A stretch of 64,000 bases of DNA, taken from a virus. The position numbers were made by a program, and so were the translations under genes. Each line of letters starts with the position of its first letter. Positions within the stretch are counted from its first letter, which is position 1. The stretch lies in UHGV virus genome UHGV-1358930. The stretch is one strand, 5' to 3'. The notes beneath the pieces were generated by a model. The model saw nothing but the letters and a program-made list of their open reading frames with translations, did no database searches and was not told the origin of the DNA. Below are positions 3,346 to 61,382 of the stretch, piece by piece.

Positions 3346-3629
3346 CATCCTATTAGACCCTTGCACGCCTCTCAACGATGCGTACCATGCGAGGGTCGAA
3401 ATTAAATAGTTTTCTTGCCGCATTTGGTACGAAGTATCAAAATATCCGCTGCCTGCGGTAATAGGTGATCTGAATATAGATCAAATTCAGATCAACGGCG
3501 TAGCATTTAACGGGCTTTAGCTACACTACACGGTAAGAGTTGAGAAAGCTGGTTGATGTATCGTGCAAACCTGCGGGTCCACGATCCACAGACGGTTCGC
3601 GATGACTGCTGTAAACGGAATCGCGTTTT

Positions 3630-4949: not shown

Positions 4950-5026
4950 GGGAATGTAGCTCAGTAGGTTAGAGCGCATGACTATAGGTCATGAGGTCGA
5001 AGGTTCAAGCCCTTCTGTTCCCTCCA
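4950..5026 (+). tRNA. tRNA of undetermined identity; anticodon loop CTATAGG gives a formal anticodon ATA (A34, highly unusual); Ile(TAT)-like, Tyr-decoding or a pseudo-tRNA are all possible
   Basis: Canonical cloverleaf: acceptor gggaatg/tgttccc, D-arm gctc-agtaggtta-gagc, anticodon stem catga/tcatg, T-arm gaagg-TTCAAGC-ccttc, CCA encoded. Confidence 0.6.
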
Positions 5027-5771: not shown

Positions 5772-7028
5772 ATGATGAAAACATGGAAGCAAAATCTAAA
5801 ACATCTTACCGTCGATCAATACAATCTGTTAAGAGAATTATGTAGCTTGTCTAGAGCAGTATATAATGAAAGTTTGTATAATATTCGGCAGCATTATTTT
5901 GAAGAAGGTTCTTACTTGAGATATGAAGCAAACTACTATCTTGTAAAGAATTCTGATAATTACAAAAGATTAGGTGCAAATGTTGCTCAGCAATCTATGA
6001 AAGGAGCTGACGCATCCTTCAAATCCTTCTTCGGGTTACAGAAGCTCGCTAAATCCGGCAAGTATCAGGGCTGGAAAATACGAATGCCCAAATATTTGAA
6101 GAAAGATTCGTTTTTCAAAATAGTATTTAGTCAAGCGCAGATATCAGATGACAAATTTCGTGTTCCGGTTTCTTTTGATATGCGAAAAGATTACAAAGAA
6201 CCAATGTTCATAAAAATTCCTCCGCATATTATCGGCAAGAAAATAAGGCAGATTCATATTGTTCCTAAGTACAACGGTAGATACTTTGAAGTTAGATACA
6301 TGTTTGACGATATTGATGTAGAAAAGCCTGAAATCGATGCTACAAGAGCAATGGGAATAGACTTAGGTGTCAATAACTTAGCTACTTGTGTAACCGATAC
6401 AGGTGAGTCTTTCATAATTGATGGTAAGAAATTAAAATCAATAAATCAATGGTACAACAAAGAGTTGGCCAGACTGTCAAGTATTAAAGATAAGCAAAGT
6501 ATCAAAGGTTACACAAAACGCCAATACAACCTGACAACTAAGAGAAACAACAGAGTTAACAACTATATTTATTGTGCAGCTAAGAAAATAGTTAACTACT
6601 GTGTCAATAACAAAATTGGTAATATTGTTGTAGGGTATAATGATGGTTTTCAATCGAGATCCAACTTAGGAAAAGTAAATAACCAAAACTTCGTTATGAT
6701 TCCGTTAGGACGACTGAAGAGCAGACTTGAGTATCTTTGCAATCAACATGGAATCAATTTTGTACTTCAAGAAGAAAGTTACACTTCAAAAGCATCGTTC
6801 TTTGACGATGATAAAATGCCAAAATGGAATCCGCAGAATCCAGAAGAAGCAAAATTTTCGGGAAAACGCGTATACAGAGGATTATACATCACATCAAACA
6901 AAACCAAAATAAACGCAGATGTCAACGCAGCACTAAACATACTAAGAAAAAGTAACTTGACAGACCTAACCGTCTTACAAGCTAGAGGCGCAGTCAGCTC
7001 GCCTTCAAGATGCTATATAGCATCTTGA
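5772..7028 (+). CDS. tnpB: TnpB (IS200/IS605-family OrfB, RuvC-like RNA-guided nuclease family); no tnpA partner
   Basis: GGAGGTG RBS. 418 aa. C-terminal RuvC-III-like motif INADVNAALNILRKS. Overall TnpB architecture. Confidence 0.85.
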   Translation: MMKTWKQNLKHLTVDQYNLLRELCSLSRAVYNESLYNIRQHYFEEGSYLRYEANYYLVKNSDNYKRLGANVAQQSMKGADASFKSFFGLQKLAKSGKYQGWKIRMPKYLKKDSFFKIVFSQAQISDDKFRVPVSFDMRKDYKEPMFIKIPPHIIGKKIRQIHIVPKYNGRYFEVRYMFDDIDVEKPEIDATRAMGIDLGVNNLATCVTDTGESFIIDGKKLKSINQWYNKELARLSSIKDKQSIKGYTKRQYNLTTKRNNRVNNYIYCAAKKIVNYCVNNKIGNIVVGYNDGFQSRSNLGKVNNQNFVMIPLGRLKSRLEYLCNQHGINFVLQEESYTSKASFFDDDKMPKWNPQNPEEAKFSGKRVYRGLYITSNKTKINADVNAALNILRKSNLTDLTVLQARGAVSSPSRCYIAS

Positions 7029-31661: not shown

Positions 31662-31929
31662 ATTCGTTATTTATATCGGAGGAGAATCTACAAATGAGAC
31701 TATACATCAAATCAAGTGAAAACACATCCGAAGAATTTGAAACGTTCAACACATTTGAAGTTAGTAGCATATCCGATGTACTTTCAGCTCATGCCTGATG
31801 AATTTCACTATAAAAGACCTCTTAGACAAGGAGGTCCGATGCTTGTGAAAATAGCTTATAGAACAATTCAATGGTAATCAGTTTTCACGCGTTAACATAA
31901 CATCATTCTAACTAGGAGCTGCTGAATCA

Positions 31930-32709
31930 ATGAAAAAACGAATATATCCAATATCTGCTGGAATTCGTGTTGAGAACAACAAATTTATATTTAAGAATGA
32001 AAATTCACCTGATGATATAATTGATTTCAAATATCCTCAGATATATCAATCGAAATTTGGAAAATACACTTATTGGTTCGGTTACAAGTTCAATGACACA
32101 GTTTCCTCTAAAGACAGATCTAAGTTCTTGCACGCTATCAAAGGATTATCCGAAGATCAGATATCTGATAATGATATTGTTGACTTTATAGACAGGCCAA
32201 TATTTGAGTTAGACAACTATATAAATACGTACAGCATATCTGCAGTTATTTACCCAGTATCTGGAAGAAGCAAGTTAGTTTCTAAAATAATAAGTGAAGT
32301 AGGGAGATTCACTTCACATGATACAAAGAGGCTGTCGTTTGAGTTTGTTAAAAATATTCCAAATAAAATTGAATTTGATTGGGAGCAATTTGAATCCGAT
32401 ACGTCGAATGATCTCAACAAATACAATCAAATGAAGAAATATGTAACAGAGGAATTGTTACCAGCTATTCATTCCTTAGATTACTTTTCTCTTGCAGAAA
32501 ATGTGAAACCTAAATATCGAAAGTATATAAAAAACTATTTGGCATTGTCTGAATCAGATGTAGCTAAACTAGCTTCGTTAAAAGGTGAAACTGTTCTTAT
32601 TATAGACGATATAAATACATCAGGTGCTACACTAGATGAGCTTGTCCGAAACATCAGACTACTAAATAACACGTGCAAGATTTTTATTTATACGCTTATC
32701 GGTAAATAG
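31930..32709 (+). CDS. type I phosphoribosyltransferase-domain protein (C-terminal PRPP-binding motif) with unknown about 150-aa N-terminal domain
   Basis: PRT type I signature VLIIDDINTSGATL near the C-terminus; TAGGAG RBS. Confidence 0.6.
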   Translation: MKKRIYPISAGIRVENNKFIFKNENSPDDIIDFKYPQIYQSKFGKYTYWFGYKFNDTVSSKDRSKFLHAIKGLSEDQISDNDIVDFIDRPIFELDNYINTYSISAVIYPVSGRSKLVSKIISEVGRFTSHDTKRLSFEFVKNIPNKIEFDWEQFESDTSNDLNKYNQMKKYVTEELLPAIHSLDYFSLAENVKPKYRKYIKNYLALSESDVAKLASLKGETVLIIDDINTSGATLDELVRNIRLLNNTCKIFIYTLIGK

Positions 32710-32904
32710 CGAACCAATCGTTAATTTATATAGTAACTTGACGAAGAGTATACTCAATATCGTGCACATGGAGTAAAAAAAATAACATTGACACATGCCG
32801 ATGATCACATAGATAGAATACCGCTTGTGTTTTGTAAGAAACCTTGACACCCACAAGCCCAGCAGAAATGCTGAAATAAACAAAAATAAAAGGAGTTAAT
32901 AATT

Positions 32905-33654
32905 ATGAGTAAATTACGAAAGATCATTGTTTCAGAAATTGAGGACTACAGAGTTCTCTTGCGCAATGCGCCAGCTGTTACAATGATCTTTTTCTGTGTG
33001 TCTGTTATCTTAATGAACCTATTTGCGTCTAAAGAGCTACTAAATATTGAATATTTAGGGCTAGATTGCGGATTTTTGCTATCATGGCTCAGTTTTCTTT
33101 GCATGGATATGCTGACAAAGCGATTTGGTGCAAAACCCGCGATCAAACTTTCATTGTTTGCTGTTTTCCTCAACTTGCTTACATGTATATTCTTCTTTAT
33201 AGTTGCACACATCGGAAACAACTGGGCAGCTTTCTATACATACGAAAATGACATTGCTAACTCCGCTATAAATGAAACAATCGGAGGTACCTGGTATGTG
33301 TTAGTGGGATCAATGACTGCTTTCGTTGTTTCGTCAATTGTAAACGCACTGCTAAATGAAGGAATTGGTAAATTAGTTAAGAGGAAAAATTTTGTCGAAT
33401 ACGCTCTTAGGTCATATGCTTCTACAATGATTGGTCAGTTTGTAGACAATCTTGTTTTTGCAAGCTTAGTATCTAAGATTTTCTTTGGGTGGACATGGAA
33501 GCAGGTAGTATTTTGCTCACTCGCTGGAGCTATCGCAGAACTTCTATCCGAAGTAATTTTCAGCCCGATCGGATTTAAAGTTTGCAAGAAATGGGAGAAG
33601 CACAATGTAGGCGCGGATTATATCAAGTACACGCTTAGCAAAGAAAGGAGATAA
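32905..33654 (+). CDS. yhhQ: YhhQ/DUF165-family membrane protein (queuosine-precursor preQ0/preQ1 transporter family)
   Basis: 6-7 predicted TM helices; CMDMLTKRFGAKPAIKLSLFAVFLNLL resembles the YhhQ core (D..tEvyG motif); AAAGGAG RBS. Confidence 0.6.
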   Translation: MSKLRKIIVSEIEDYRVLLRNAPAVTMIFFCVSVILMNLFASKELLNIEYLGLDCGFLLSWLSFLCMDMLTKRFGAKPAIKLSLFAVFLNLLTCIFFFIVAHIGNNWAAFYTYENDIANSAINETIGGTWYVLVGSMTAFVVSSIVNALLNEGIGKLVKRKNFVEYALRSYASTMIGQFVDNLVFASLVSKIFFGWTWKQVVFCSLAGAIAELLSEVIFSPIGFKVCKKWEKHNVGADYIKYTLSKERR

Positions 33655-33660
33655 TTAAAC

Positions 33661-34341
33661 ATGTCAAATAACAAAGGAGTAGTAGTTGTAACTGGATCTT
33701 CTGGAGGTATTGGAGAGGCCATATGTAAAAAATTTCTATCCGAGGGGTTTGAAGTTCACGGAATTGATGTAGTAACTCCTTCGACAGAACTTCTACATGA
33801 TTTAAACTTCTATTCACACATAAACGATATTAGAAATTCTAATGATCTGCCAGACATTGACAAAGTGGAGTACTTGATCAATTGTGCAGGTACTCAAAAT
33901 TCATACGATGATATCGGAAATAATCTTATCGGTCTAATGAATACTACAGAGAAATATGGACTTCAATATTGGATTAAATCAATTGTAAACATGGCATCTG
34001 TATCCGCGCACAACGGATGTGAATTTCCTAAATACGTCGCGTCTAAAGGTGGTGTGCTCGCTTATACTATATGGACAGCCAAAGAAATTGCTACATACGA
34101 GAATCACCCAACATGTAACAGCCTATCATTTGGCGGAGTACTGACAGCACTTAATTCGGAAGTTATCTGTGACAAAGAAAAGTTCAACAAGATTATGGAC
34201 ATGACTCCGTTAAGGAAGTGGGCTACAGCTGAAGAGTGTGCAGAATGGACATACTTCATCTCAGTTGTAAATAAATCAATGTCAGGACAAGATATCATTA
34301 TCGATAACATGGAAACTAGAAACAATCAGTTTGTTTGGTAA
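33661..34341 (+). CDS. short-chain dehydrogenase/reductase (SDR) family oxidoreductase
   Basis: Rossmann TGSSGGIG at the N-terminus; catalytic YxxxK-like YVASK; AAAGGAG RBS. Confidence 0.6.
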   Translation: MSNNKGVVVVTGSSGGIGEAICKKFLSEGFEVHGIDVVTPSTELLHDLNFYSHINDIRNSNDLPDIDKVEYLINCAGTQNSYDDIGNNLIGLMNTTEKYGLQYWIKSIVNMASVSAHNGCEFPKYVASKGGVLAYTIWTAKEIATYENHPTCNSLSFGGVLTALNSEVICDKEKFNKIMDMTPLRKWATAEECAEWTYFISVVNKSMSGQDIIIDNMETRNNQFVW

Positions 34342-34350
34342 AGTATTCAA

Positions 34351-34406
34351 AGAGAGTTTTGTATTCCTTTGAAACCCTCTCTGAAAATAAAAATAATAAG
34401 GAGAAG
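34351..34406 (+). ncRNA. candidate preQ1-I-type riboswitch-like leader (hairpin + A-rich tail + SD) upstream of queF
   Basis: agagag..ctctct 6-bp stem, then gaaaataaaaataataaggag with the SD in the tail; architecture only, no model scan possible. Confidence 0.3.
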
Positions 34407-34413
34407 TAAAAAA

Positions 34414-35925
34414 ATGCTAAAATCAAACAATGGAAGAACATCCGAAGACTTATCAGGAGTAACTCTACTTGGTAATAACAACACTGAGTACAACTACGAC
34501 TATACTCCAGAAGTTCTAGAAACATTTGTAAACAAGCATCCTGACAACGATTATGTTGTCACATTTGATGCTTATGAATTTACAAGCAAGTGTGTCACCG
34601 GAGACACTATGATAGATGTTGCATGTAATGAAACTGACAATCCGGATGGAATTCCAATCAAAGATTTGGTAGGTACAGAAGGATATGTGTTTTGTGTAGA
34701 TCCCACTACATTACAACCATTATGTAGGAAGTATCGAGATGTACGAAAGACTGGAGAAAGTGTACCTGTAGTTAAAGTACTCATGCAAAGTTTGAGAACA
34801 GATGGAAAGGGTAACACATACTATGAATCTTCTGAAATCAAGTGTACACCTGATCATATGATATTGGTGAAAAAAGGATTCCATGATAGCGAATGGGTGT
34901 GTGCAAAAGATCTCAAACCTGGCATGAGGTTGATTGCAAATCAAAGAAGTGGAGATGTAATACGATCTAAACTTCGACACAGACTTATTGGGGAAGCAAT
35001 TTTTGATGAAGATATTATGAATATTCATCATATAGACGGTAATCATTACAATAATGACCCATCTAATCTATCTAATTTATCTTCTCATGATCATCACCAT
35101 CTTCATAGATCTCAAGAATATGGATACGATAATTTAGATGTATCATACTTAGTTGATCTGTATAACTCCGGAGAAAACTTCAACTCCATAGCAAAGATGT
35201 TCAACTGTGATGTATCTACCATTGAATCTAGAATAGGTAATATAGTTGGAAGACGGACACAATCAGAGTCATTATCACTACGAAATAACTTGTTGAATAA
35301 AGAGCGGGATAGCGAAATCTGTGAATTGTACAACAAAGGATACTTGCTATCTGAAATTGCAGATTACTTAAATATCCACAGTACAACAGTGTTAGGAGCA
35401 CTAGAAAGACACGGCATCCCTCGCAGAGAATCGAACTTCTCTAGGTACAATCGAAAGAAATTGAACCTCCCACCATTGAATCATAAAGTACTAGCTGTAC
35501 TAGATGGTGGATATGAAGATGTGTACAACATGGAAGTAGAAGGAGTTGAAAACTATTTTGCCAATGAAGTGATAGTCCATAACTGCCCAAAAACGGGGCA
35601 GCCAGATTTTGCAAAAGTTGTAATTAGTTACATTCCTAATGAGAGAATGGTTGAAAGCAAGTCCCTAAAGCTTTACCTCTTTTCTTTCCGCAATCATGGA
35701 GATTTCCACGAAGACTGCATGAACATCATCATGAAGGATCTAATTCATCTTATGGATCCGAAGTACATTGAAGTAAAAGGTATTTTTTCTCCAAGAGGAG
35801 GTATCTCCATCTTTCCCTTTGTTAACTACGCGAATCCGAAATTTAATTATCAGGATTTTGCAAAGTCTCGAATGCTGGAGGCGCTTAGAGATTCGAGCAA
35901 TAGAACAGTAAGATACGATATGTGA
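34414..35925 (+). CDS. queF: NADPH-dependent 7-cyano-7-deazaguanine reductase QueF (YkvM type), interrupted by an intein (extein 172 aa)
   Basis: N-extein ends ..AYEFTSK, C-extein starts [18 protein letters not shown]..; spliced junction [14 protein letters not shown] matches the QueF catalytic motif E(F/Y)TSLCPxTGQPD. Confidence 0.8.
34591..35583 (+). mobile_element. intein (331 aa) within queF carrying an HNH endonuclease domain and two HTH modules; inserted immediately before the QueF catalytic Cys, which serves as +1 residue
   Basis: Block [11 protein letters not shown] at the start; terminal VIVHN followed by extein Cys; HNH core [23 protein letters not shown]. Confidence 0.75.
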
Positions 35926-36023: not shown

Positions 36024-36767
36024 ATGAAAATGGAAAACAAAAGAAATTCAAACAAAAAAGCGTTGGTGCTCTCGTCAGGTGGAGTAGACTCCACTACTTG
36101 CGTAGGTATTGCTGTAAATGAATTAGGTTCTGAAAATGTTAGCACTGTATCGGTGTTTTATGGACAGAAACACAATAAAGAACTTGAATGCGCTGAAAAA
36201 GTAGCTGAATTTTATAATGTAAAGCACTATGTTCTTGACTTGTCTAATGTCCTTCAGTACAGCAACTGTTCTCTAATGAAGAACAGCACAGAAGAAATCC
36301 CTATGATGAGCTACGCAGAGCAGATTGAAAAGAATGGTAAACCATCAACAGAAGTTCCATTGAGAAATGGACTCATGCTCATGGCAGTTGGCTCATTAGC
36401 TATGCAACTTTATCCAGAAGCTGATGTCGATATTTACATTGGAGCACATGCCGATGATGCTGCAGGTAATGCTTATCCAGATTGCTCTGCAGAATTCATT
36501 CAAAACGTAAAAGAAGCAATATTGATTGGATCTAGATATAAAGTTAACTTAGTTTCTCCATTTGTGAATCATAACAAATCAGAAGTTGTTAAATTAGGGT
36601 TATCTATAGGTGCTCCGTATGAATTAACAACTTCCTGTTACAATGGCAGAGAGAAAGCTTGTGGATTGTGTGGAACCTGCAGAGATCGTATAGCTGCATT
36701 CAAAGCAAACAATGCAATTGACCCAATTGAATATGAAATTGACGACCCATTCAAAGAAATGCGATGA
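36024..36767 (+). CDS. queC: 7-cyano-7-deazaguanine synthase QueC
   Basis: PP-loop [14 protein letters not shown]; C-terminal zinc Cys cluster [10 protein letters not shown]. Confidence 0.9.
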
Positions 36768-36774
36768 TGTTCAA

Positions 36775-37371
36775 ATGGAAATATGGCGACCTGCTAAAGG
36801 ATATGAAGATAAATATGAGGTGAGCAATTTAGGACGAGTAAGAAATTCAAAGCATTATATCATGAAACCACATCTACAAGATGATGGATATCTTTGGATA
36901 TACCTTGCGTCTAAAACTAGTCCTAACAACACATCAATTCATAGGCTAGTTGCTAAAACGTTTATTCCGAATCCAGAAGGCAAACCGCAAGTAAATCACA
37001 TAGACGGGAACAAAACAAATAATCGAGTTGAGAATCTAGAATGGGTTACAGGATCTGAAAATGTTAAACATGCTTATGCCAATAATCTAATTGCAGACAA
37101 ATCTCCTGAAGGCATCAGAAATATTGTAGCAGCAGCTAGAAAATCATTGAAGAAATATTGCAACATCCCGATAATATGTGAAACTACAGGGCAAGAGTTT
37201 GAATCTATTCATCATGCTGCACTACATTATGATGTAGACGATACCACTATTCAAAACATCGTAAGAAATGTAACAAAAAGATCCAGAAAACTACCTGGAT
37301 TGAAATTTAGATTCAAATATCCAGAGATTACTTGTAGATCACCTCATAGAAAGAAACATTTAATTAAATAG
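36775..37371 (+). CDS. HNH homing endonuclease inserted between queC and queD
   Basis: [23 protein letters not shown]; [25 protein letters not shown]; C-terminal IENR/NUMOD-like module. The ORF listed from 36712 overlaps queC; the likely start is ATG 36775. Confidence 0.75.
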
Positions 37372-37387
37372 CTTTGGAGGAATGAGA

Positions 37388-37825
37388 ATGTATACAGTAA
37401 AAACAAAAGTATCTTTTGAAGCTGCGCATCGTCTATACAATGTAGACACATACTCAAAAGAATGCAGAGATAATCTCCATGGGCACTCATACAAAGTAGA
37501 AATTGTCGTAGGCGCAGATAACTTGAACTCTGCTGGAATGGTTATTGATTTCAAGCTGCTAAAAACAGTTATTCGAGAAGAGATTGAATCTAAATATGAT
37601 CATTCTTGTATATTGAGAAAATGCGATCCAATTGCAAATACTATCAAGGAAAACTGTAAGAAAGTTATCCTTGTTGACGAAAGTCCTACTGCAGAATGGA
37701 TGGCAAAAGAATTCTATGACATGATTGAATCTAAAGTTCATACGTATTCTTCTGATTTACATGTTGTTTCAATTGGAGTACAAGAAACAGAAAATAACAT
37801 TGCGTATTATCTTCCGGAGGAATAA
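37388..37825 (+). CDS. queD: 6-carboxy-5,6,7,8-tetrahydropterin synthase QueD
   Basis: CRDNLHGHSYKVEIVV zinc/catalytic motif; GGAGG RBS. Confidence 0.9.
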   Translation: MYTVKTKVSFEAAHRLYNVDTYSKECRDNLHGHSYKVEIVVGADNLNSAGMVIDFKLLKTVIREEIESKYDHSCILRKCDPIANTIKENCKKVILVDESPTAEWMAKEFYDMIESKVHTYSSDLHVVSIGVQETENNIAYYLPEE

Positions 37826-37827
37826 AC

Positions 37828-38469
37828 ATGAAAGTTATCGAATTATTTAATAGTATTGATGGAGAGGGCAAACGAGCTGGTATGCTCGCTACGTTTATAC
37901 GTCTGTCTACGTGCAATCTTAGATGCAGTTACTGCGATTCCGCTTACGCTTTCGATGATAAGCTTGCTGAAGAGATGTCAATTCAAAGTATTGTAGCAAA
38001 CTGCGACAAATATGATTGTCCGCAAATTACGCTAACTGGTGGAGAGCCTTTGATTTCCAGAGACGTAGAGCTACTTTTATCCGAACTTGATTCTCATGGA
38101 TATGACGTCAATGTGGAAACAAATGGGTCTATTGATCCATCCGCATATCATAAATACAAAAATGTTTGGTTCACAATTGACTGGAAATGCCCTTCTAGCG
38201 GTATGGAGTCAAAAATGAATCCGAAAGCATTTGAAACACTTCGTGAGCAGGATGTACTAAAATTCGTAGTAGGGTCAAATGAGGACTTACAAGATGCGTT
38301 ACACGTCATCAAGAAGTACAACCCAAAATGCTCAATCTATTTCAGTCCGGTATTTGGATATGATGCAAAAAATATCGTAGAATTCATGAAAGATCACAAA
38401 CTGAATGATTGCAAAGTTCAGCTTCAAATTCATAAGTATATCTATGACCCGAATGCTAGAGGAGTATGA
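37828..38469 (+). CDS. queE: 7-carboxy-7-deazaguanine synthase QueE (radical SAM)
   Basis: [10 protein letters not shown] radical-SAM cluster motif; GGAGG RBS. Confidence 0.9.
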
Positions 38470-38486
38470 TCAAAGAAGGTGTTGAT

Positions 38487-39062
38487 ATGAAAAATATTGA
38501 TAAAAACAAAATTGAAAAGCTGACAAGAGAGCTCTTAGTAGCTTTAGGCGATGATCCTGACAGAGAAGGGTTGAAGAAGACTCCAAGTCGAGTTGCAAGA
38601 ATGTGTGATGAATTATTTGAAGGTATGACACATTCGAATCACGAGATAGCTGAAATGTTCAATACATGTTTTGAAGATGTAAAAACTGGAGATCTTGTAG
38701 TGGAGAGCAATATTCCGATTCACTCCTGCTGCGAACATCATCTCATGCTGATGTATGATATGTCAGTAGCTATTGGATACATTCCAAATGGTAAAGTTAT
38801 CGGATTATCTAAGCTTGCTAGAATTTCTGACATGGTTGGAAAGCGACTTCAGTTGCAAGAACGAATCGGTTCAGATATCGCAGATATTCTCCACGAAATT
38901 CTCAATACCAATGACATCATTGTTGTCATTCAAGGAAAGCACGGATGCATGACAGCACGCGGCATTAAATCAAGAGAAGCAATAACTCGAACAGCTACAC
39001 TTAGAGGAAGATTTGAGTCAGATTCAGATCTACGATCCGAATTCTATTCTCTCATCAAATAA
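38487..39062 (+). CDS. folE: GTP cyclohydrolase I FolE
   Basis: CEHHLM active-site motif; N-terminus aligns with B. subtilis MtrA-type FolE ([17 protein letters not shown]). Confidence 0.9.
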
Positions 39063-39101
39063 CTTACTTCTGGATACAGATAAGTAGATTGAATCGTTAA
39101 T

Positions 39102-39137
39102 GTAGACGTACTAAACTATAGTGCGTCTACAATTTTA
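39102..39137 (+). terminator. possible terminator hairpin
   Basis: gtagacg..cgtctac stem followed by AATTTTATAT. Confidence 0.35.
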
Positions 39138-42169: not shown

Positions 42170-42823
42170 ATGGATGTAGTAAAGAATATGCGTGGAAGTA
42201 TTTGGTGGTTGAAAGACGAATTTGATAAATACAAAGGTGAAAGAGGCATCCTTAGAGGTTCTAGGCCGGTTATCATTATGAATAATCCAGCAAACGAATA
42301 TAATGATTGCACTATTACATATTTGCCGATTTCTAAGTGCGAATCTCATGCTGGTGATGATAGTCGAATTCAAATGTTTTATCAGGTACCTATTCAGATT
42401 CCTGGTAATAAATCTAGTTATGTATGTTGTAATAGCATCATGACTACAACTACTTCTCATCTTGGAGAATATGTTGGGCAGATTTCAGAAGATAAGCTAA
42501 AAGAAGTCGAAGCCGAATTGATGCGTTATCTTTCTCTTTCTGAAAAAGTCGTTACACGAGAAGTAATAAAAGAGGTTAGGGATACAGACAAGGCAACGAA
42601 AACAACTTCTTTTTCTATTACAGACGCTGTCGCTTGTCCAGAACTCAAAAAAGTATATTCTAGTTGTACTGAAATGGCTAAAGATCTTAACTGCTCTCCT
42701 GCGTCTATCAGCAAGTCGAGTAGATGGGGAAGTAAGCTGATGCACAAATACACAGTGTTTAAAGTAGCAACGGCTGCTGGAAACTATGTTTGCAAAACTA
42801 AGGAGGAAATCAAAAATGAGTGA
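42170..42823 (+). CDS. protein with N-terminal PemK/MazF-like (toxin endoribonuclease fold) domain fused to a C-terminal putative DNA-binding module
   Basis: GSIWWLKDEF..KGERGILRGSRPVIIMNN...CTITYLPISK resembles the MazF/PemK core (G.E..G.RP..v.s ... v.PiTs). Confidence 0.45.
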   Translation: MDVVKNMRGSIWWLKDEFDKYKGERGILRGSRPVIIMNNPANEYNDCTITYLPISKCESHAGDDSRIQMFYQVPIQIPGNKSSYVCCNSIMTTTTSHLGEYVGQISEDKLKEVEAELMRYLSLSEKVVTREVIKEVRDTDKATKTTSFSITDAVACPELKKVYSSCTEMAKDLNCSPASISKSSRWGSKLMHKYTVFKVATAAGNYVCKTKEEIKNE

Positions 42824-49302: not shown

Positions 49303-49879
49303 TTGTATATATACACCATATTGTACATACAAACAATGCGACTTAGCTTGTCCTAATAGAGCTGAAGTGAATTGTTGGTTCAAACGATGCCGACTTGATA
49401 TGTCAAATAATTGCTTGCATACTAATATCCGAAATATTGAGAAAGCCGAGGATCTACTAAGTAACAAGTATGGAGAAACTGTGTGGTTTCCCACAGATAA
49501 TCCTTCAGATGCAAGCGACACTATTTGCTACGTAGCTATTTGCAAATATGGTAAAGGTACTGCTCTTGGAAACGGAATATACAATCTGGATTTTGCAAAA
49601 TTTATAGATATGATCAAGGAGTCCTGGAATACGCATTTTGAAACAGATAACTTAATTCAGATGCGTGTGTGGTCTTTGTCTGCAAATTACCTAGTTATCT
49701 CAAATCTAGATTATGTTAGATTTCAAGATTTTGAAAGTCAAACGTTGCTAAGGCTTCTGAATGATCGAAGAGATTATACAAAGACAACTGTAGTAGTTAC
49801 TAGTAAAGAACCTTTGGTCGGCAGCGGAAATTTCTTTCCTAGATTGACTTCTTTGCTAAAGGGGGTCAAGAGCAATTGA
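49295..49879 (+). CDS. hypothetical protein, Cys-rich N-terminus (possible helicase-associated factor)
   Basis: 194 aa immediately upstream of the helicase gene; function not inferable from sequence alone. Confidence 0.45.
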   Translation: MHDCIYTPYCTYKQCDLACPNRAEVNCWFKRCRLDMSNNCLHTNIRNIEKAEDLLSNKYGETVWFPTDNPSDASDTICYVAICKYGKGTALGNGIYNLDFAKFIDMIKESWNTHFETDNLIQMRVWSLSANYLVISNLDYVRFQDFESQTLLRLLNDRRDYTKTTVVVTSKEPLVGSGNFFPRLTSLLKGVKSN

Positions 49880-52299
49880 CGAATTCAGTAGAACTTCAAG
49901 TTATTTGTAAAATTTTAACAAGTCAAGATGATTCTGAAATTGATAGGCTGTGTGCGTTTGATGAATCCTATTACGCAGTATTCAAAGATCAGATCAAATT
50001 TATTCTAGATCATAGAGAAAAATATCATACTGTCCCAGACTTGTTTACGTTCCAAGCTCAATTCGAAGACATTGTTTTGATTGATGTAAACGAATCTGCA
50101 GATTTTTTAGTAGACGGACTTCGGAAAAACAAGCAGCAGATCATACTCTTACAAACATTCAATAAGCTATCTGAGTTAGGTTCTGCAGACGTTTCTGAAG
50201 CTTGGCAGTTCTTACAATCCCAATGCGACAAAGCTGCTCAACTTGATAATTCTAACCCGATGGATATCATCAAAGAAGCTCACAAGCGAAGTGATCAAGT
50301 TTTATCGCTAAGTAATCAAACAAGAATTCCTACAGGATTCAAAGAAGTAGATGAAACAATGTATGGAGGATTGTCAACTGTTGAAGAACTTTGTCTTGTA
50401 GTTGCTAGAACTAACACAGGTAAAGCTCAGCCTCTTTGGAGTAATATCTTAACACCTACTGGGTGGAAGCGTATGCGAGATATTCAAGTAGGAGACATTG
50501 TATGCGGTAGAGATAATGACAATGGTAAAGTAGTTCAAATATTTCCGCAAGGTACAATTGACTACTATCGTGTAAAGTTTGATGATGGTACTTATACGGA
50601 GTGTTCTGCAGATCATCTTTGGGAAGTTCTGGATAGTGAACGAAGGAAGCATGATAGAAAAACTTATGGTCAGTATCTTACATTGACTACTCGAGATATT
50701 CGGAATCATATGTATCGCAGATACTCTGTTGATATGTGTGAACAAATTGAATTCGAGAGTGCTTTTGATACAGATAGTGAACTTGACGGATATTTTTTAG
50801 GAGCATTTATCGGGCATGGTAGAAATGTAGGTAACAAGCTATATATTCATTCTCTGTCCGATGTTTCAAAGCGACGTATAATTGATGCATTGTCTAAATA
50901 TCGTTGTCAATTCACAGAAAATGATCCAAATACACTCGTGATTGAGGATAAGAATGATGGTAAGCTTATCCAAAAGATGTTCGAGTACAACTTGATGAAC
51001 TGCAAAGTCATTGATAGACATATTCCGGATATATATTTTCATAGCCCTGTAAATGTTAGAAAAGCTCTGTTATCAGGTCTCTGCGATACAGATAGCACAA
51101 TGTTATCAAAAAATCATAGAGGTTGGGTTTTCGTTACATCTTCAGATCAGCTTAAATCTGATTTTGTTTACATTGCTAGATCTTTAGGTGTAAAAGCAAA
51201 GGTGTCGACTGCAAGATCTGGTAGATGGGTTGACTTAGGTGTATCGCACGTTGCGAATACGTACCACAGGGTTATGTGTATCTCAAAATTCAATCCGTTT
51301 TATGGTTCACCAAATTACACAGAATTTGAACGCAGACAGGATAAAACTAAATTTAAAAATCGCAAGCGTGTTTGCAAATTCATTGATTCTATTGAATACG
51401 TAGGTAAGACGGAATGCCAGTGTATCATGGTAGACAATAAGACGCATACATATATTACAGATGATTTTATTGTCACACATAACACCTGGGTTACTACTAA
51501 GATGATGGAGTCTGCACAAGCGAATGGATTTCCTGTACTATATTATAGCCCAGAGATGCAATCTGCTTTCATTGGCACACGATTTGATACCTGGAGAGGT
51601 CACTTCCGAAATAGCGATATTCAACGAGGTAAATACAGCGAAGACTACATTCAGTACATCAAAGACATTGTTAAAGAGGAAACTGGTGCATTTGTTGCAG
51701 AAGACAAAGATATGCCAGGAGGAAAAACAACTGTCAGGTCGATTGAAACTCTAGTCAAGCGACATCATATAAAGCTTGTTATCATTGATGGTCTGTCTTA
51801 TATGGCAGATACAGAAAAGTCTGATAGCGATGTTATTAAGTATAAAAATATATGTACTGGACTATTCCGAATGTCTAAAACATATGGATGTGCTGTAGTA
51901 GTATCTGTACAAGCTAATAGAGACACTAAATCTAATGTCGATGACAAAGGAGTCCCGTGGCCTGATATGTATTCGATTGAAGGCTCAGACCATCCAGGAC
52001 GTATTGCAACTCAAGTATTTGCGCTTCGACAATTGTACGAAGAGCATACATTAGAGATAAAGCTGTTGAAGACTAGAAATGCAAAGAATGCAAATCCTAC
52101 GTTCGCATATGTATGGGATCCAAATACAGGAAACACAGAGTTTGTTTCGGATGATGCATCGGCTGCTCCTCCTTCTGCTCCTGCACAGCCTAGCAAGTTC
52201 TCAACGCCGACAGTGTCAGCAAAGATTGTACACACCGATATAGATGATAATCTAATCGATGCCAGTACAGATGACGATCTAGATGACGTTGAGTTTTGA
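49876..52299 (+). CDS. DnaB-like replicative helicase (T4 gp41-like), interrupted by an intein in the P-loop
   Basis: Exteins join as ..LVVARTNTGK|TWVTTKMMESAQANG (Walker A GxxxxGKT). C-terminal RecA-like motifs: Walker B LVIIDGLSYM, SVQANRD. Confidence 0.8.
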   Translation: MTNSVELQVICKILTSQDDSEIDRLCAFDESYYAVFKDQIKFILDHREKYHTVPDLFTFQAQFEDIVLIDVNESADFLVDGLRKNKQQIILLQTFNKLSELGSADVSEAWQFLQSQCDKAAQLDNSNPMDIIKEAHKRSDQVLSLSNQTRIPTGFKEVDETMYGGLSTVEELCLVVARTNTGKAQPLWSNILTPTGWKRMRDIQVGDIVCGRDNDNGKVVQIFPQGTIDYYRVKFDDGTYTECSADHLWEVLDSERRKHDRKTYGQYLTLTTRDIRNHMYRRYSVDMCEQIEFESAFDTDSELDGYFLGAFIGHGRNVGNKLYIHSLSDVSKRRIIDALSKYRCQFTENDPNTLVIEDKNDGKLIQKMFEYNLMNCKVIDRHIPDIYFHSPVNVRKALLSGLCDTDSTMLSKNHRGWVFVTSSDQLKSDFVYIARSLGVKAKVSTARSGRWVDLGVSHVANTYHRVMCISKFNPFYGSPNYTEFERRQDKTKFKNRKRVCKFIDSIEYVGKTECQCIMVDNKTHTYITDDFIVTHNTWVTTKMMESAQANGFPVLYYSPEMQSAFIGTRFDTWRGHFRNSDIQRGKYSEDYIQYIKDIVKEETGAFVAEDKDMPGGKTTVRSIETLVKRHHIKLVIIDGLSYMADTEKSDSDVIKYKNICTGLFRMSKTYGCAVVVSVQANRDTKSNVDDKGVPWPDMYSIEGSDHPGRIATQVFALRQLYEEHTLEIKLLKTRNAKNANPTFAYVWDPNTGNTEFVSDDASAAPPSAPAQPSKFSTPTVSAKIVHTDIDDNLIDASTDDDLDDVEF
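50425..51483 (+). mobile_element. intein (353 aa) with LAGLIDADG homing endonuclease; class-3-like (Ala1, WCT motif)
   Basis: Starts AQPLWSNILTPTGW; ends FIVTHN|T. Block B ..ADHLW, block F ECQCIMV, block G Thr-His-Asn. LAGLIDADG motifs LDGYFLGAFIGHG and LLSGLCDTDS. Confidence 0.65.
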
Positions 52300-52514: not shown

Positions 52515-53651
52515 TTAGGAGAAAGCTATTCTCAAGCCCTCGTTCAATATATTCTTTGATGCATTGATATCTCTATCATGTGTTGTTTGACAATTAGGAC
52601 AAGTCCAATTTCTAACTTCAAGATTTTTGACTTCTGGATTTTTGAATCCGCAACAGCTACAAGTTTGAGAAGACGGAAAGAAGGCGTCTATTTTGACAAG
52701 TTGTTTTCCATACCAGCTGCACTTGTAAGTCAATAGTTCAACGAATTTTGACCAGCTTGCGTCTGAAATTGCTCTTGCTAGTTTATGATTCTTGACCATA
52801 TTTTTGACTTTCAAGTCTTCAACACAGATTATGTCGTGGTTTTTGACAAATTCTGTTGACAGCTTGTGCAAGAAATCATTTCGTTGATTTGAAACTTTCT
52901 CAAATTGTTTAGCAAGTCTGATTCTTGATTTGTTTCTGTTATTAGATCCTTTTTGCTTCTTCGAGAGCTGTCTTTGAAGTCTTCTTAACTTCTTAGTAGA
53001 CTTTGAAAGGTATTTCGGATTTTTGATCTTTTCACCGTCTGAAGTTATTGCGAAATCTTTGATGCCGAGGTCAATTCCTACAACAGATCCAGTTTTGTCA
53101 AACTCTTCAATTTCAACATCTTTGCAACAGATACTTGCAAAATATTTTCCTGAAGCTGTTTTTGAGATGGTTGCCGAAAGCGGAGTTCCTTTGACATTTA
53201 AATTTCCTTTGAATTTAACCCATTTCAATTTAGGCAAGAAGATCTTGTTATCTAAACAATGAAATTGTGCAGGTGTGGAGTATGTAGCCTTATATGACTG
53301 TCTACTTGAAAGTTTCTTCTTAAATTTAGGATAACCTGGTTGCTTTCCATTCTTTACGTTTCTAAAGAAGTTTTGATACGCAGTATCAAGATCTCTAAGA
53401 GACGATTGCAAAGCCATTGCTTCAGGTTCTTTCAACCATGAATATTCGTCAAGCTTCTTGAGCTTTGTTAAATCTGCAGAATTTTGATTATATGTATTTG
53501 ACTTTCTTGCCTCTTCATAATCTTTGATGGATTTAGCAAGATAGTAGTTGTAGACAAATCTGCAGCAGCCAAAGGTTTTTGCAATTTGCTCAATCTGCTG
53601 CTTGTTCGGATATATCCGTATTTTATAAGCTTTCAGAATCATTTTGGTCAT
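52515..53651 (-). CDS. tnpB: TnpB (IS607/IS605-family OrfB, RuvC-like nuclease with C-terminal zinc finger)
   Basis: N-terminus [23 protein letters not shown]; zinc finger [24 protein letters not shown]. Confidence 0.85.
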
Positions 53652-54243
53652 CTGAAAGTGCCTCCTTGATTTTAGCTACGCTTCTCTTAGAATACATTTT
53701 CATTGAGTAACAGTGCAGTAAACTTACGATTTCTTCAAAAATTTCTTCAGAATCAAGTTTTTCGGATCCTAGTTGGGACGCAACAACTATCTCTGTTCCA
53801 AATTTTCTAAAAAGATGATAAAATAGATCAAATCCTACTCTAGACAGTCTGTCTTTATAATTGATAACTACTTTCTCAACTTTATATTCCAATACATCGT
53901 CTAATAGTTCAAAAAACTGTTTTCTGTTTTCAAAAGAAATTCCGGAAGCAACCTCTTGAAAAACACCATCGACTTGAATTCCGGAATTCATGCAAAAACT
54001 GTTCAAAGATTCAAGTTGGTTCGCTAGATCCGATTTTTGAGATATTGTAGAAACTCTAGCGTAGATATAATTTTTTCTTGTTTGACCGTTATTTAATATA
54101 GAGTAGACGTCTTTATCATGATAGATGCGCTTACCTGTAGGTGTTAAGTCATAATGAATGAGTCCTCTTTTGCAATAATGACCAAGTGTTGGCTGTGAAA
54201 TATTCAATAGTTGTAACACTTGTTTAGCTTTCATATTGATCAC
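53623..54243 (-). CDS. tnpA: IS607-type transposase TnpA (small serine recombinase with N-terminal MerR-like HTH)
   Basis: [26 protein letters not shown]; catalytic serine motif [14 protein letters not shown]; 29-nt overlap with tnpB. Confidence 0.85.
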
Positions 54244-59207: not shown

Positions 59208-60476
59208 TTGAGTTTATTTACCAAGTCACAAATGGCGAAATTCAATGAAGTTGCCGAACGAAGCAAACAGCTTAACAAAGAAAAACCAAAGTCTGTAAAT
59301 GTATCTACAGTAAATGCGGAATTGAAGTCGATGTCAGATTCTGTGCTAGAATACTTCAAAGACTCCCCTGCTATCTGCATTCGAACCGCTGATCAGCTAC
59401 ATGAATACATTGATAAATGTATCGAAGCTGGATACGCTGGTATAGATACAGAAACAACGGGACTAGACAGACAAAGAGATTACATTGTAGGCGCGTCTTT
59501 ATATTATCCGGATGGTACAGAATGTTATATTCCGATGAAACATAAGATCCCTATTTTCGAAACTCCTTACAAAAATCAACTGTCTTATGAAGAAGTAACT
59601 AAAGAATTCAAACGACTAGAAAACAGCAACATACGACTCATTTTTGCAAATGCTGACTTCGACTTAGCAATGATCTACAAGGATCTAAAAGTTGATTTCA
59701 ACGATAGATTCTATTATGATGTTATTCTTGCATGGCGTTGTTTGAAGGAGAATGAGTTACACAATGACTTGAAATTCCTTTACAATAAATATGTATTGAA
59801 AGGAAAAGGAGATCCTAAACGTTTTAGCGATTTCTTTTCTGTAAAGCTGTTCCCATATTCTGATCCTGAAATCGCTAAATTGTACGCAGCAAACGACGCA
59901 AAAATCACATTTCAACTGTTCAAGTGGCAGCTTCCTTATGTTACAGAAAGTCATCCTAAGTGTCAGAAAGCTCACCTAGAAGCAATATCTAGACTCATTT
60001 GGAACATAGAGTTTCCACTGGTTAAAGTCTGCCAGAATATGTATAGAAGAGGTTCATACATTGATTCTAATGTTGCTAGTGTTTTGAAAAAGCGATACAG
60101 AGATGAATACAATGTAGAAGTCAAAAAGCTACAAGACATGGTACAAAAAATCATTGATAATACGAATATAGCATATTCAGGTAAACGTCCATTTACTAGA
60201 GGAGCAGATTTCAACCCATCTTCACCTCCTCAAGTTAAATATTTGATATACAATCTACTTCAAATTCCTAAAGGATCGTCTTCTGGAACAGGTAAAGAAG
60301 TATTGAACGAACTTAATCTGCCTGTAACAAATCAGATACTGAAGGTAAGATCTCTATCTGTACTTATCAATACATTCGTAGAGAAGCTACCAGCTGCCGC
60401 AAGTCTGGATCATAGAATTCATGGTCAGTTCAAGCAGGTGGGTGCAGCCACGGGCAGGTTGTCTTGTGCCGAGCCT
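59208..60476 (+). CDS. family A DNA polymerase, exon 1 (3'-5' exonuclease domain and start of the polymerase domain; TTG start)
   Basis: Exo I motif GIDTETTGL; ends at ..KQVGAATGRLSCAEP (PolA motif TGRLSSxxPNLQNIP), then out-of-frame sequence and a stop. Confidence 0.75.
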
Positions 60477-61382
60477 AAACATGATAAATCAGATTGGGCT
60501 CGTAAAATCGAGTTAATTCAGGGAAGGGTAGCAGCTTGACGCTGTGAGATAACCCTGAGCCAAGGCTCTCATATATCTACTTAGGAGGTACACGATATGA
60601 GAAAGATTCAATTCAATGAAGAGACCATCAATGCAATTAAAAATTTTATAGAGTCTGGTCACACAATGGAAGAGACATGTAACAGATTTACGCTCAAATA
60701 CGATACATTGAAACGTGTAATGTTTGAGAACAATCTGAAGCCGTATAGAGCAGATAAATCACATCCCGTTATCTTCACTAGAGATGAGGAAAACATCGTA
60801 TGTAAGCTATATTCGACAACTTCAATGACAATGAAAGATATCTGTAAAGAAGTGAAGCTACCTGATTACGCTGTGCAGAAAATACTATCGGATAATTTTT
60901 CTGAAAAATACAGAAATGAAAGGAAAGCAAAGCTTTATAGATTGTCCAAACGGTGCGAGAATAGTCCGTGGTTTCAGAAATACGGAGCAGACTCTTCTCA
61001 GTGGGTCGGAGGCGTTGTAGACGATGGCAACGGATATGATATGATCAAAAAACCTGAGTGGTACACAGGTAGAAAGTGTTCTGATTATGTCTTTTTACAT
61101 ACAGTTGTGATGTGTGAGCACTTAGGTCTAACTGAACTTCCTAAAGGATATGTAGTACATCATATCGACGGAAACAAGAAAAATAACACAATAGATAATT
61201 TAGCGTTGATGACCGTGTCAGGACACAGTAAGTTACATTTGTTGATGAAGAATCTATGCAAGGTGCAGAGACTATCCGAACAGGAGTAAGCGAAAGCTGA
61301 AATGCTAGACAATGGTTGTGTATGACATCTATCATTCCTACTAGTTATACAAGCCATCGAAGATATAGTCCACAAATAATTG
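60477..61382 (+). mobile_element. putative group I intron 1 in the DNA polymerase gene (encodes HNH endonuclease)
   Basis: Exon 1 ends after U (cct|); the intron ends in G immediately before exon-2 codon AAC; free-standing ORF with its own RBS inside. Confidence 0.6.
60597..61289 (+). CDS. intron-encoded HNH homing endonuclease
   Basis: TAGGAGG RBS; HNH core VVHHIDGNKKNNTIDNLALMTVSGHSKLH. Confidence 0.8.
   Translation: MRKIQFNEETINAIKNFIESGHTMEETCNRFTLKYDTLKRVMFENNLKPYRADKSHPVIFTRDEENIVCKLYSTTSMTMKDICKEVKLPDYAVQKILSDNFSEKYRNERKAKLYRLSKRCENSPWFQKYGADSSQWVGGVVDDGNGYDMIKKPEWYTGRKCSDYVFLHTVVMCEHLGLTELPKGYVVHHIDGNKKNNTIDNLALMTVSGHSKLHLLMKNLCKVQRLSEQE

Follow-up and report, generated by a model that had tools for sequence, protein, structure and literature searches.

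What kind of element interrupts the queF gene of the virus genome UHGV-1358930 directly before the codon for the enzyme's catalytic cysteine, and how did it come to be there? We addressed these questions in a 64,000-nt stretch of this genome (hereafter the window, along which all positions are numbered), where an earlier note, made from the letters alone, had marked a 331-aa insertion in QueF as an HNH-type intein. Our analysis agrees: the segment is very probably a splicing-competent class 1 intein with an HNH homing endonuclease and two helix-turn-helix (HTH) modules, residing in queF of a large uncultivated gut phage. Both the open reading frame (ORF) list and the raw sequence show a single open frame spanning 34369-35925. 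Its likely start is the ATG at 34414, with GGAG at 34400-34403, 10 nt upstream; public gut-metagenome contigs have an identical 503-aa product annotated from this start. The queF::intein precursor gene (34414-35925, plus strand, 503 aa plus stop) comprises a 59-aa N-extein ending in ...EFTSK (34414-34590, plus strand), the 331-aa intein (34591-35583, plus strand; Cys1 ... His330-Asn331), and a C-extein of 113 aa plus stop (35584-35925, plus strand). Checked by hand, AAG for Lys59 ends at 34590, TGT for Cys1 occupies 34591-34593, AAC for Asn331 occupies 35581-35583, and TGC for the +1 Cys follows at 35584-35586 (plus strand). The insert, 993 nt or 331 codons in frame, thus starts with CVTGD, ends with VIVHN and is followed by CPKTGQPDF, and the boundaries proposed earlier proved exact to the base. 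We found no stops within the insert in the queF frame, compared with 15-39 in each of the other five frames; the probability of 331 stop-free codons at the insert's base composition is ~4e-12, and the insert is therefore open far beyond chance.

We next consider the enzyme that is interrupted. Excision of the insert leaves a product of 172 aa, the length anticipated by the earlier note, and the joined exteins match TIGR03139 (preQ1 synthase, unimodular QueF) in one stretch at 165.7 bits (cut-off 86.9; positions 2-114 of 115). With the insert left in, the match falls into two pieces. The joined product also aligns without gaps to Bacillus subtilis QueF (YkvM; 4F8B) with E 7.6e-67, and the N-extein is contiguous with the C-extein in both alignments. 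The +1 Cys aligns with B. subtilis Cys55, the position that is Ala in the 4FGC sequence, confirming that the splice-junction nucleophile and the catalytic nucleophile of QueF are the same residue. Cys55 is the invariant cysteine that forms a thioimide with preQ0; it is prone to oxidation, against which a disulfide with Cys99 protects it, and the catalytic set further includes Asp62, Glu97 and the motif E(S/L)K(S/A)hK(L/Y)(Y/F/W) (PMC5372742). Equivalents of Cys55, Asp62, Glu78 (in the QueF motif), Glu97 and Cys99 are all found in the C-extein. As the window numbering is that of B. subtilis plus 5 in the gapless 4F8B alignment, the catalytic residues are C60, D67 and E102, and the motif, ESKSLKLY, starts at E83. 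QueF and QueF-L have been described as hard to tell apart by sequence in phages (PMC6884629). Judged from these alignments, the excised 172-aa product is a complete unimodular QueF, for which we predict NADPH-dependent reduction of preQ0 to preQ1.

The insert itself carries the full residue set of a class 1 intein, and splicing is predicted. It matches Pfam Intein_splicing at 46.4 bits (cut-off 35.8) and TIGR01443 (intein_Cterm, cut-off 15.6) at 20.9 bits when the full precursor is scanned and 16.5 bits for the intein alone, and structure comparison recovers the Hint fold of a class 1 intein. The N-terminal Hint lobe (34591-34950, plus strand; intein residues 1-120) contains Cys1 of block A (34591-34593) and, in block B, Thr86 (34846-34848) and His89 (34855-34857) of a TPDH sequence. 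The C-terminal lobe (35482-35583, plus strand; residues 298-331), the part matched by TIGR01443, contains Asp310 of block F (35518-35520) and His330-Asn331 of block G (35578-35583). Among 65 aligned relatives, Cys1, His89, His330 and Asn331 are invariant, and at least 90% retain Thr86, Asp310 and the +1 Cys. Comparison with intein blocks, as suggested earlier, hence finds A, B, F and G as well as the +1 Cys. Since splicing is a prediction, we also considered that the insert might be a genuine extra QueF domain, a Hint domain of the bacterial intein-like (BIL) or another type, an intron-like element in frame, or an insertion in decay that had made queF a pseudogene. Nothing specific favors any of these, all of which we rejected as the identity of the insert; they are contradicted by the conservation of catalytic residues in the 65 sequences, by the Hint fold and by the empty site of a near-identical phage (L003, described below), and are almost certainly wrong. 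The earlier note had held that a true QueF domain, shared by related phages and devoid of Hint blocks, would count against an intein. We found the reverse: the Hint blocks are present, and the QueF of L003 is uninterrupted.

Between the Hint lobes lie the putative endonuclease parts. The HNH module (34951-35124, plus strand; residues 121-178) contains His147 (35029-35031), Asn159 (35065-35067) and His172 (35104-35106); no other residue of the central region is invariant across 56 sequences, whose identities go down to ~27%. This triad lies within the conserved motif HRLI...HH-D-x-N-H-x-N-N-x-P-x-N-L...H-x-x-x-H. Among the 65 relatives of the intein, 35 match HNH_3 at E <= 1e-3 (best 2.9e-11), though the window copy, at 18.3 bits, falls under the Pfam cut-off of 24.8. 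With an HNH-only profile, I-HmuI (1U3E) was the top match among PDB sequences, weak at E 0.19, and structure searches with the intein model returned no HNH match (beta-beta-alpha-metal fold). The HNH-type assignment is thus well supported by the conserved residues but not confirmed by fold search. Of the two HTH-like modules reported previously, both are present. HTH module 1 spans 35137-35235 (plus strand; residues about 183-215), and module 2 spans 35320-35460 (plus strand; residues about 244-290), with a second HTH_38 stretch, HTH_40/HTH_23 matches and helices at 253-290 in the model; HTH_38 scores 32.6 bits (cut-off 27), and HTH folds were also matched by structure comparison. Measured against the closest distinct allele (L062), the intein as a whole has a dN/dS of 0.088 and its HTH region one of 0.07. 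The intein is under purifying selection, which is strong in the HTH modules.

If the segment is an intein with a homing endonuclease, alleles that lack it might be expected in close relatives. Such an allele is present in L003 (IMGVR_UViG_3300029032_000001), which is 98.9% identical to the window upstream and 97.1% downstream and is without exactly this segment, the breakpoints coinciding with the intein ends. The L003 QueF and the predicted spliced product agree at every residue (100% identity), and the empty site of L003 reads ...GCTTACGAATTTACGTCAAAG↓TGCCCAAAAACGGGG..., where the arrow marks the insertion point. Across the 519 nt of extein, L003 and the window differ at 7 nt, 5 of which are synonymous differences in the 16 nt that directly precede the insertion point (P = 5.6e-7 for this clustering, or 2.8e-4 when counted by events); the Ser58 codon, for instance, is AGC in the window and TCA in L003. 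The intein is also present in L065, a different phage with neighboring genes 65-74% identical and no dehydrogenase gene. Its exteins are only 67-80% identical to those of the window, whereas its intein has 6 mismatches in 993 nt (99.4% DNA identity). The shared tract, at 34573-35585, overshoots the intein by 18 nt on the upstream side and by 2 nt on the downstream side, and the 18 upstream nucleotides (34573-34590, plus strand), which include the Ser58 codon and are identical to L065, appear to be a co-conversion tract that traveled with the intein. More generally, the serine codon at position -2 is AGY in 10 of 10 intein-bearing alleles and in 4 of the 13 intein-free alleles examined (one-sided P 0.0009; 0.004 after collapsing to lineages). 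AGY and TCN are not interconvertible by single synonymous steps, so we conclude that the flank was imported with the intein.

Other phages document replacement at the same site. In L067, the flanks are 95-100% identical to the window while the intein is 47-75% identical in DNA and 64% in protein; this is a near-identical phage that, by sequence, carries a second intein lineage. Across the family, intein identity does not follow extein identity, as in P0001 (99.7% for the intein, 85.7% for the C-extein) and P0015 (64.4% for the intein, 100% for the C-extein). From this population evidence, read from sequences, the intein is mobile, horizontally transferred between diverged queF alleles and still spreading.

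Is the endonuclease responsible for this spread? We considered that the Hint domain splices while the HNH is dead, with the intein carried along by general recombination between co-infecting phages or by cleavage in trans by a free-standing HNH enzyme of the operon. Trans-homing of defunct endonucleases reportedly occurs in T4. The sub-threshold HNH_3 score of the window copy and the lack of an HNH match in the structure searches are compatible with this idea, as are free-standing NUMOD4-HNH genes at polymorphic positions beside queF and queC (36712-37371 in the window, and in L063 and L067). However, the HNH triad and its flanking motif are invariant at the depth of divergence given above, and the HTH modules are under the strong constraint already described. 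The transferred tract also stops within 18 and 2 nt of the intein, as expected of a break at the insertion site. In addition, L065 and L002 have the intein, yet no free-standing HNH gene in the operon, which together with the tract ending at the intein makes the free-standing genes unlikely drivers. Overall, we regard a dead HNH as unlikely and favor an active homing endonuclease.

To place the intein among its relatives, we searched with the intein alone and found ~75 protein clusters with a relative (32-100% identical) inside QueF, all from uncultivated phage contigs. Every readable QueF-hosted cluster has the junctions EFxS(K/L/R)↓C ... HN↓CPxTxQPD (arrows marking the splice points), with HN↓CP in 76 of 76 examined. 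The QueF inteins fall into three size classes: full length, at 331-341 aa; 218-223 aa, in which the HNH is retained and both HTH modules are gone; and mini-inteins of 139-163 aa. Pairwise alignments indicate that the short forms are in-situ deletions, with hosts 81-93% identical to those of full-length forms. In an exhaustive search that covered 1.84 billion representatives, the QueF clade consisted of 13 representatives at E <= 1e-30, separated by a score gap (E 1e-31 to 1e-23) from hundreds of inteins in other proteins. The same overall architecture is found in inteins of RecA, an SMC/SbcC-like ATPase and unidentified large proteins, and further relatives reside in terminases and a glycosyltransferase-like protein. 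Single-protein scans for the intein gave only relatives of 28-35% identity in IMG/VR, in terminases and the glycosyltransferase-like protein, and of 27-31% identity in GTDB genomes, in metagenome-assembled genomes, and they assigned no host. Megablast of the region against GenBank phages gave no match, and tblastn of the intein against the same phages found only distant terminase inteins. We also noted that the terminase inteins of L052, L053 and L055 have good in-frame N- and C-terminal Hint blocks with stops across the central region, which suggests an out-of-frame or decayed endonuclease.

One relative interrupts a different enzyme. P0077 (L064:216-1625) has a related HNH intein in FolE, with junctions ...FSN↓C...HN↓CEHH, just before the Cys of the CEHH motif. 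It is 28% identical to the window intein by BLASTP and 33% in the family alignment, and splicing would leave an ordinary GTP cyclohydrolase I (E 1.6e-56). The Cys of CEHH lines up with QueF Cys55 in a profile-profile alignment, albeit a weak one (probability 26%, E 7e-4). A recent jump from QueF to FolE was rejected, the junction DNA being unrelated (12/30 and 22/45 matches).

Collectively, the anatomy, fold, residue conservation, purifying selection, empty site, horizontal transfer, second lineage and deletion derivatives that we computed are explained by selfish homing. We propose the following sequence of events, in which splicing, HNH cleavage of the empty site and inactivity of the precursor are what we infer from the sequence. 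The 503-aa precursor would fold its Hint domain, Cys1 would undergo an N-S acyl shift, and the +1 Cys would attack the resulting thioester (trans-thioesterification). Asn331 would cyclize with the help of His330, freeing the 331-aa intein as a 38-kDa endonuclease, and an S-N shift would yield an ordinary 172-aa QueF whose Cys is available for thioimide formation with preQ0. No activity is expected of the precursor, in which the catalytic Cys lies 331 residues away from the ...EFTSK strand. Upon co-infection, the freed intein might find an intein-free queF through its HTH modules, the HNH domain would nick or cut this allele near the insertion point, and repair off the intein-bearing genome would copy the intein with up to 18 nt of upstream and up to 2 nt of downstream flank.

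The predicted dependence of QueF on splicing led to the suggestion, in the earlier note, of a regulatory checkpoint. In this explanation, the intein is kept mainly as a conditional switch, with a redox or infection cue gating splicing and thereby turning on conversion of preQ0 to preQ1. Cys1 and the +1 Cys are indeed both cysteine nucleophiles, the latter being the oxidation-prone QueF residue whose disulfide partner, Cys99, is retained in the extein (PMC5372742), and a regulatory role after translation has been proposed for phage inteins (PMC5050341). Nevertheless, the near-identical phage L003 does without the intein, and 48 of 49 related IMG/VR queF loci give matches of uninterrupted length. 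(The one longer match, in L048, is no intein but a tandem queF fragment next to an intact queF.) The intein also spreads horizontally, gives way to other lineages and degenerates into mini-inteins, the pattern of a selfish element rather than of a fixed device, and its penultimate His and other catalytic residues are canonical, unlike those of the "tuned" phage inteins (PMC5050341). A checkpoint is thus possible, but with near-identical phages lacking the intein nothing in the data requires it, and a switch as the main reason for its retention is very unlikely. We also give little weight to a broader, quite unlikely proposal in which the intein gates the branch point from preQ0 to preQ1 according to thiol redox state or infection stage and its relatives target the structurally equivalent active-site Cys in QueF (Cys55) and FolE (CEHH, in P0077), paralogous T-fold enzymes of one pathway. 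If the gate were real, the 7-deazaguanine base made by the phage could vary with redox conditions in the infected cell, and conditional splicing would couple protein splicing to which base modification the phage DNA or tRNA receives; if equivalent sites were targeted, this would point to fold-level inheritance of the site or to repeated capture. We continue to favor selfish homing.

The queF::intein gene is part of an operon that has, upstream of it, genes for a phosphoribosyltransferase-like protein (a weak assignment; 31930-32709), a Vut_1 (YhhQ-like) transporter (32905-33654) and a short-chain dehydrogenase (33661-34341), all on the plus strand. Downstream of queF::intein are queC (36024-36767), the free-standing NUMOD4 + HNH_3 endonuclease gene (36712-37371, plus strand), queD (37382-37825), queE (37828-38469) and folE (38466-39062), followed by a terminator-like hairpin (39101-39131). 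The NUMOD4-HNH gene, located between queC and queD in the window, is missing in L002 and lies between queF and queC in L063, while L067 has such a gene in each of the two places, which makes the que operon a hotspot of independent homing-endonuclease genes. A 360-aa "QueD" in L059 (L059:12517-13599) was rejected as an intein carrier, as it is a normal QueD with an HNH endonuclease-like N-terminal half fused in frame upstream. We also observed a swapped segment, ~1.1 kb at 31664-32779 in the window and ~2.6 kb in L003 (L003:1774-4368), between flanks 98-99% identical; it includes the phosphoribosyltransferase-like gene. No preQ1 riboswitch was found at Rfam gathering thresholds, and promoter-like sites were not above shuffled expectation. 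In the phages Dp-1 and HVTV-1, preQ1 goes into phage DNA (PMC6884629). The preQ1 of the window phage may likewise go into phage DNA, or into tRNA; no DpdA/TGT was recognized among ~50 window ORFs scanned with Pfam or PHROGs.

The 503-aa protein also occurs on contigs of 108-162 kb, and the window is part of a ~160-kb phage. The window encodes 9 tRNAs, tail proteins, an NAD-dependent ligase, ThyX, dCMP deaminase, DnaB, and primase and polymerase fragments. No close relatives were found among GenBank phages or GTDB genomes. The lysins of relatives bear ChW or choline-binding repeats, which suggests a Firmicutes host.

Several other mobile elements and features were noted in the window. A second intein (50425-51483) lies in a DnaB-like helicase gene (49876-52299, plus strand), where 353 aa are inserted within the P-loop with junctions ...ARTNTGK↓AQPLWSN...FIVTHN↓TWV... 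and a LAGLIDADG-type "Hom_end" match. It starts with Ala, not Cys/Ser, and may therefore be of a non-class-1 mechanistic type. ThyX (318 aa), considered as another carrier, has no intein. Beside the helicase is a transposase gene (phrog_506; 52515-53651, minus strand), overlapped by a minus-strand ORF at 53623-54243. A free-standing HNH endonuclease gene (60597-61289, plus strand) follows a 443-aa DNA-polymerase ORF (59208-60539), and the polymerase gene may be split by it. NUMOD1 is a DNA-binding motif usual in homing endonucleases; an ORF at 42170-42823 (plus strand) combines a PemK/MazF-like toxin domain with a weak NUMOD1 match below the Pfam cut-off. The tRNA region contains a borderline Rfam abiF RNA (3359-3395, plus strand; 38.3 bits, gathering score 37), a TnpB-like gene (OrfB_IS605 + Cas12f1-like TNB; 5772-7028, plus strand) within the tRNA array, and a tRNA-Tyr with anticodon ATA (4950-5026, plus strand) predicted by ARAGORN and confirmed as a tRNA by Rfam. 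A34 is unusual for tRNA-Tyr, a tRNA whose G34 normally is replaced by queuosine.

How does the QueF intein compare with what has been described? In-frame HNH inteins have been known since 1997 and form a minority class that occurs mainly in phages (bioRxiv 10.1101/2025.01.02.630785), and insertion at active-center residues is typical (PMC5050341). Neither of these phage-intein surveys mentions QueF, queuosine or cyclohydrolase, and full-text literature searches pairing intein with QueF, queuosine or 7-deazaguanine returned nothing relevant. As far as these surveys and searches show, the element is of a known kind but both its host protein, QueF, and its insertion site are new, which adds an enzyme of the 7-deazaguanine (queuosine/preQ1) pathway to a list of intein hosts dominated by replication, repair and packaging proteins. 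The family also provides an unusually complete natural homing series, with empty and occupied forms of the site, another lineage at that site, the same intein in a distant phage, and derivatives without the HTH modules or without the endonuclease. To our knowledge, few HNH-type inteins have been studied biochemically, and the QueF intein offers a defined candidate target, the L003 sequence, together with very short apparent co-conversion tracts. On the practical side, annotation pipelines split or mis-size such genes, so that surveys of phage 7-deazaguanine pathways could miss or misclassify QueF.

The host enzyme resembles the known unimodular QueF proteins (YkvM, TIGR03139; 4F8B/4FGC/5UDG) in its end-to-end gapless alignment and in having all catalytic equivalents; it differs from B. 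subtilis QueF in being encoded by a phage and split by an intein. Mini-inteins of solved structure, such as NrdJ-1, Npu/Ssp DnaB and Mtu RecA, either have no endonuclease or are LAGLIDADG-derived, and are found in replication or repair proteins, whereas the QueF intein retains an HNH and two HTH modules and resides in a small-molecule biosynthetic enzyme. Its endonuclease part resembles in plan the I-HmuI-type (HNH_3) homing endonucleases of Gram-positive phages, with which it shares the motif HRL..(V/I)HH-D-G-N..NN...NL..H and a modular layout with C-terminal HTH DNA-binding units. The nearest deposited HNH inteins found here are those in the terminase large subunits of Brochothrix phage BL3 and Lactobacillus phage CL2, which likewise have an HNH-interrupted Hint domain, Cys1/HN/+1 Cys, a phage host and an active-site insertion. 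The QueF intein nonetheless differs from deposited phage inteins in being only 28-33% identical to them, over just the N-terminal 41-45%, while the block sequence CVTGDT..PIKDLVG is common to it and to inteins of terminase, RecA, SMC-like, NrdD and glycosyltransferase proteins.

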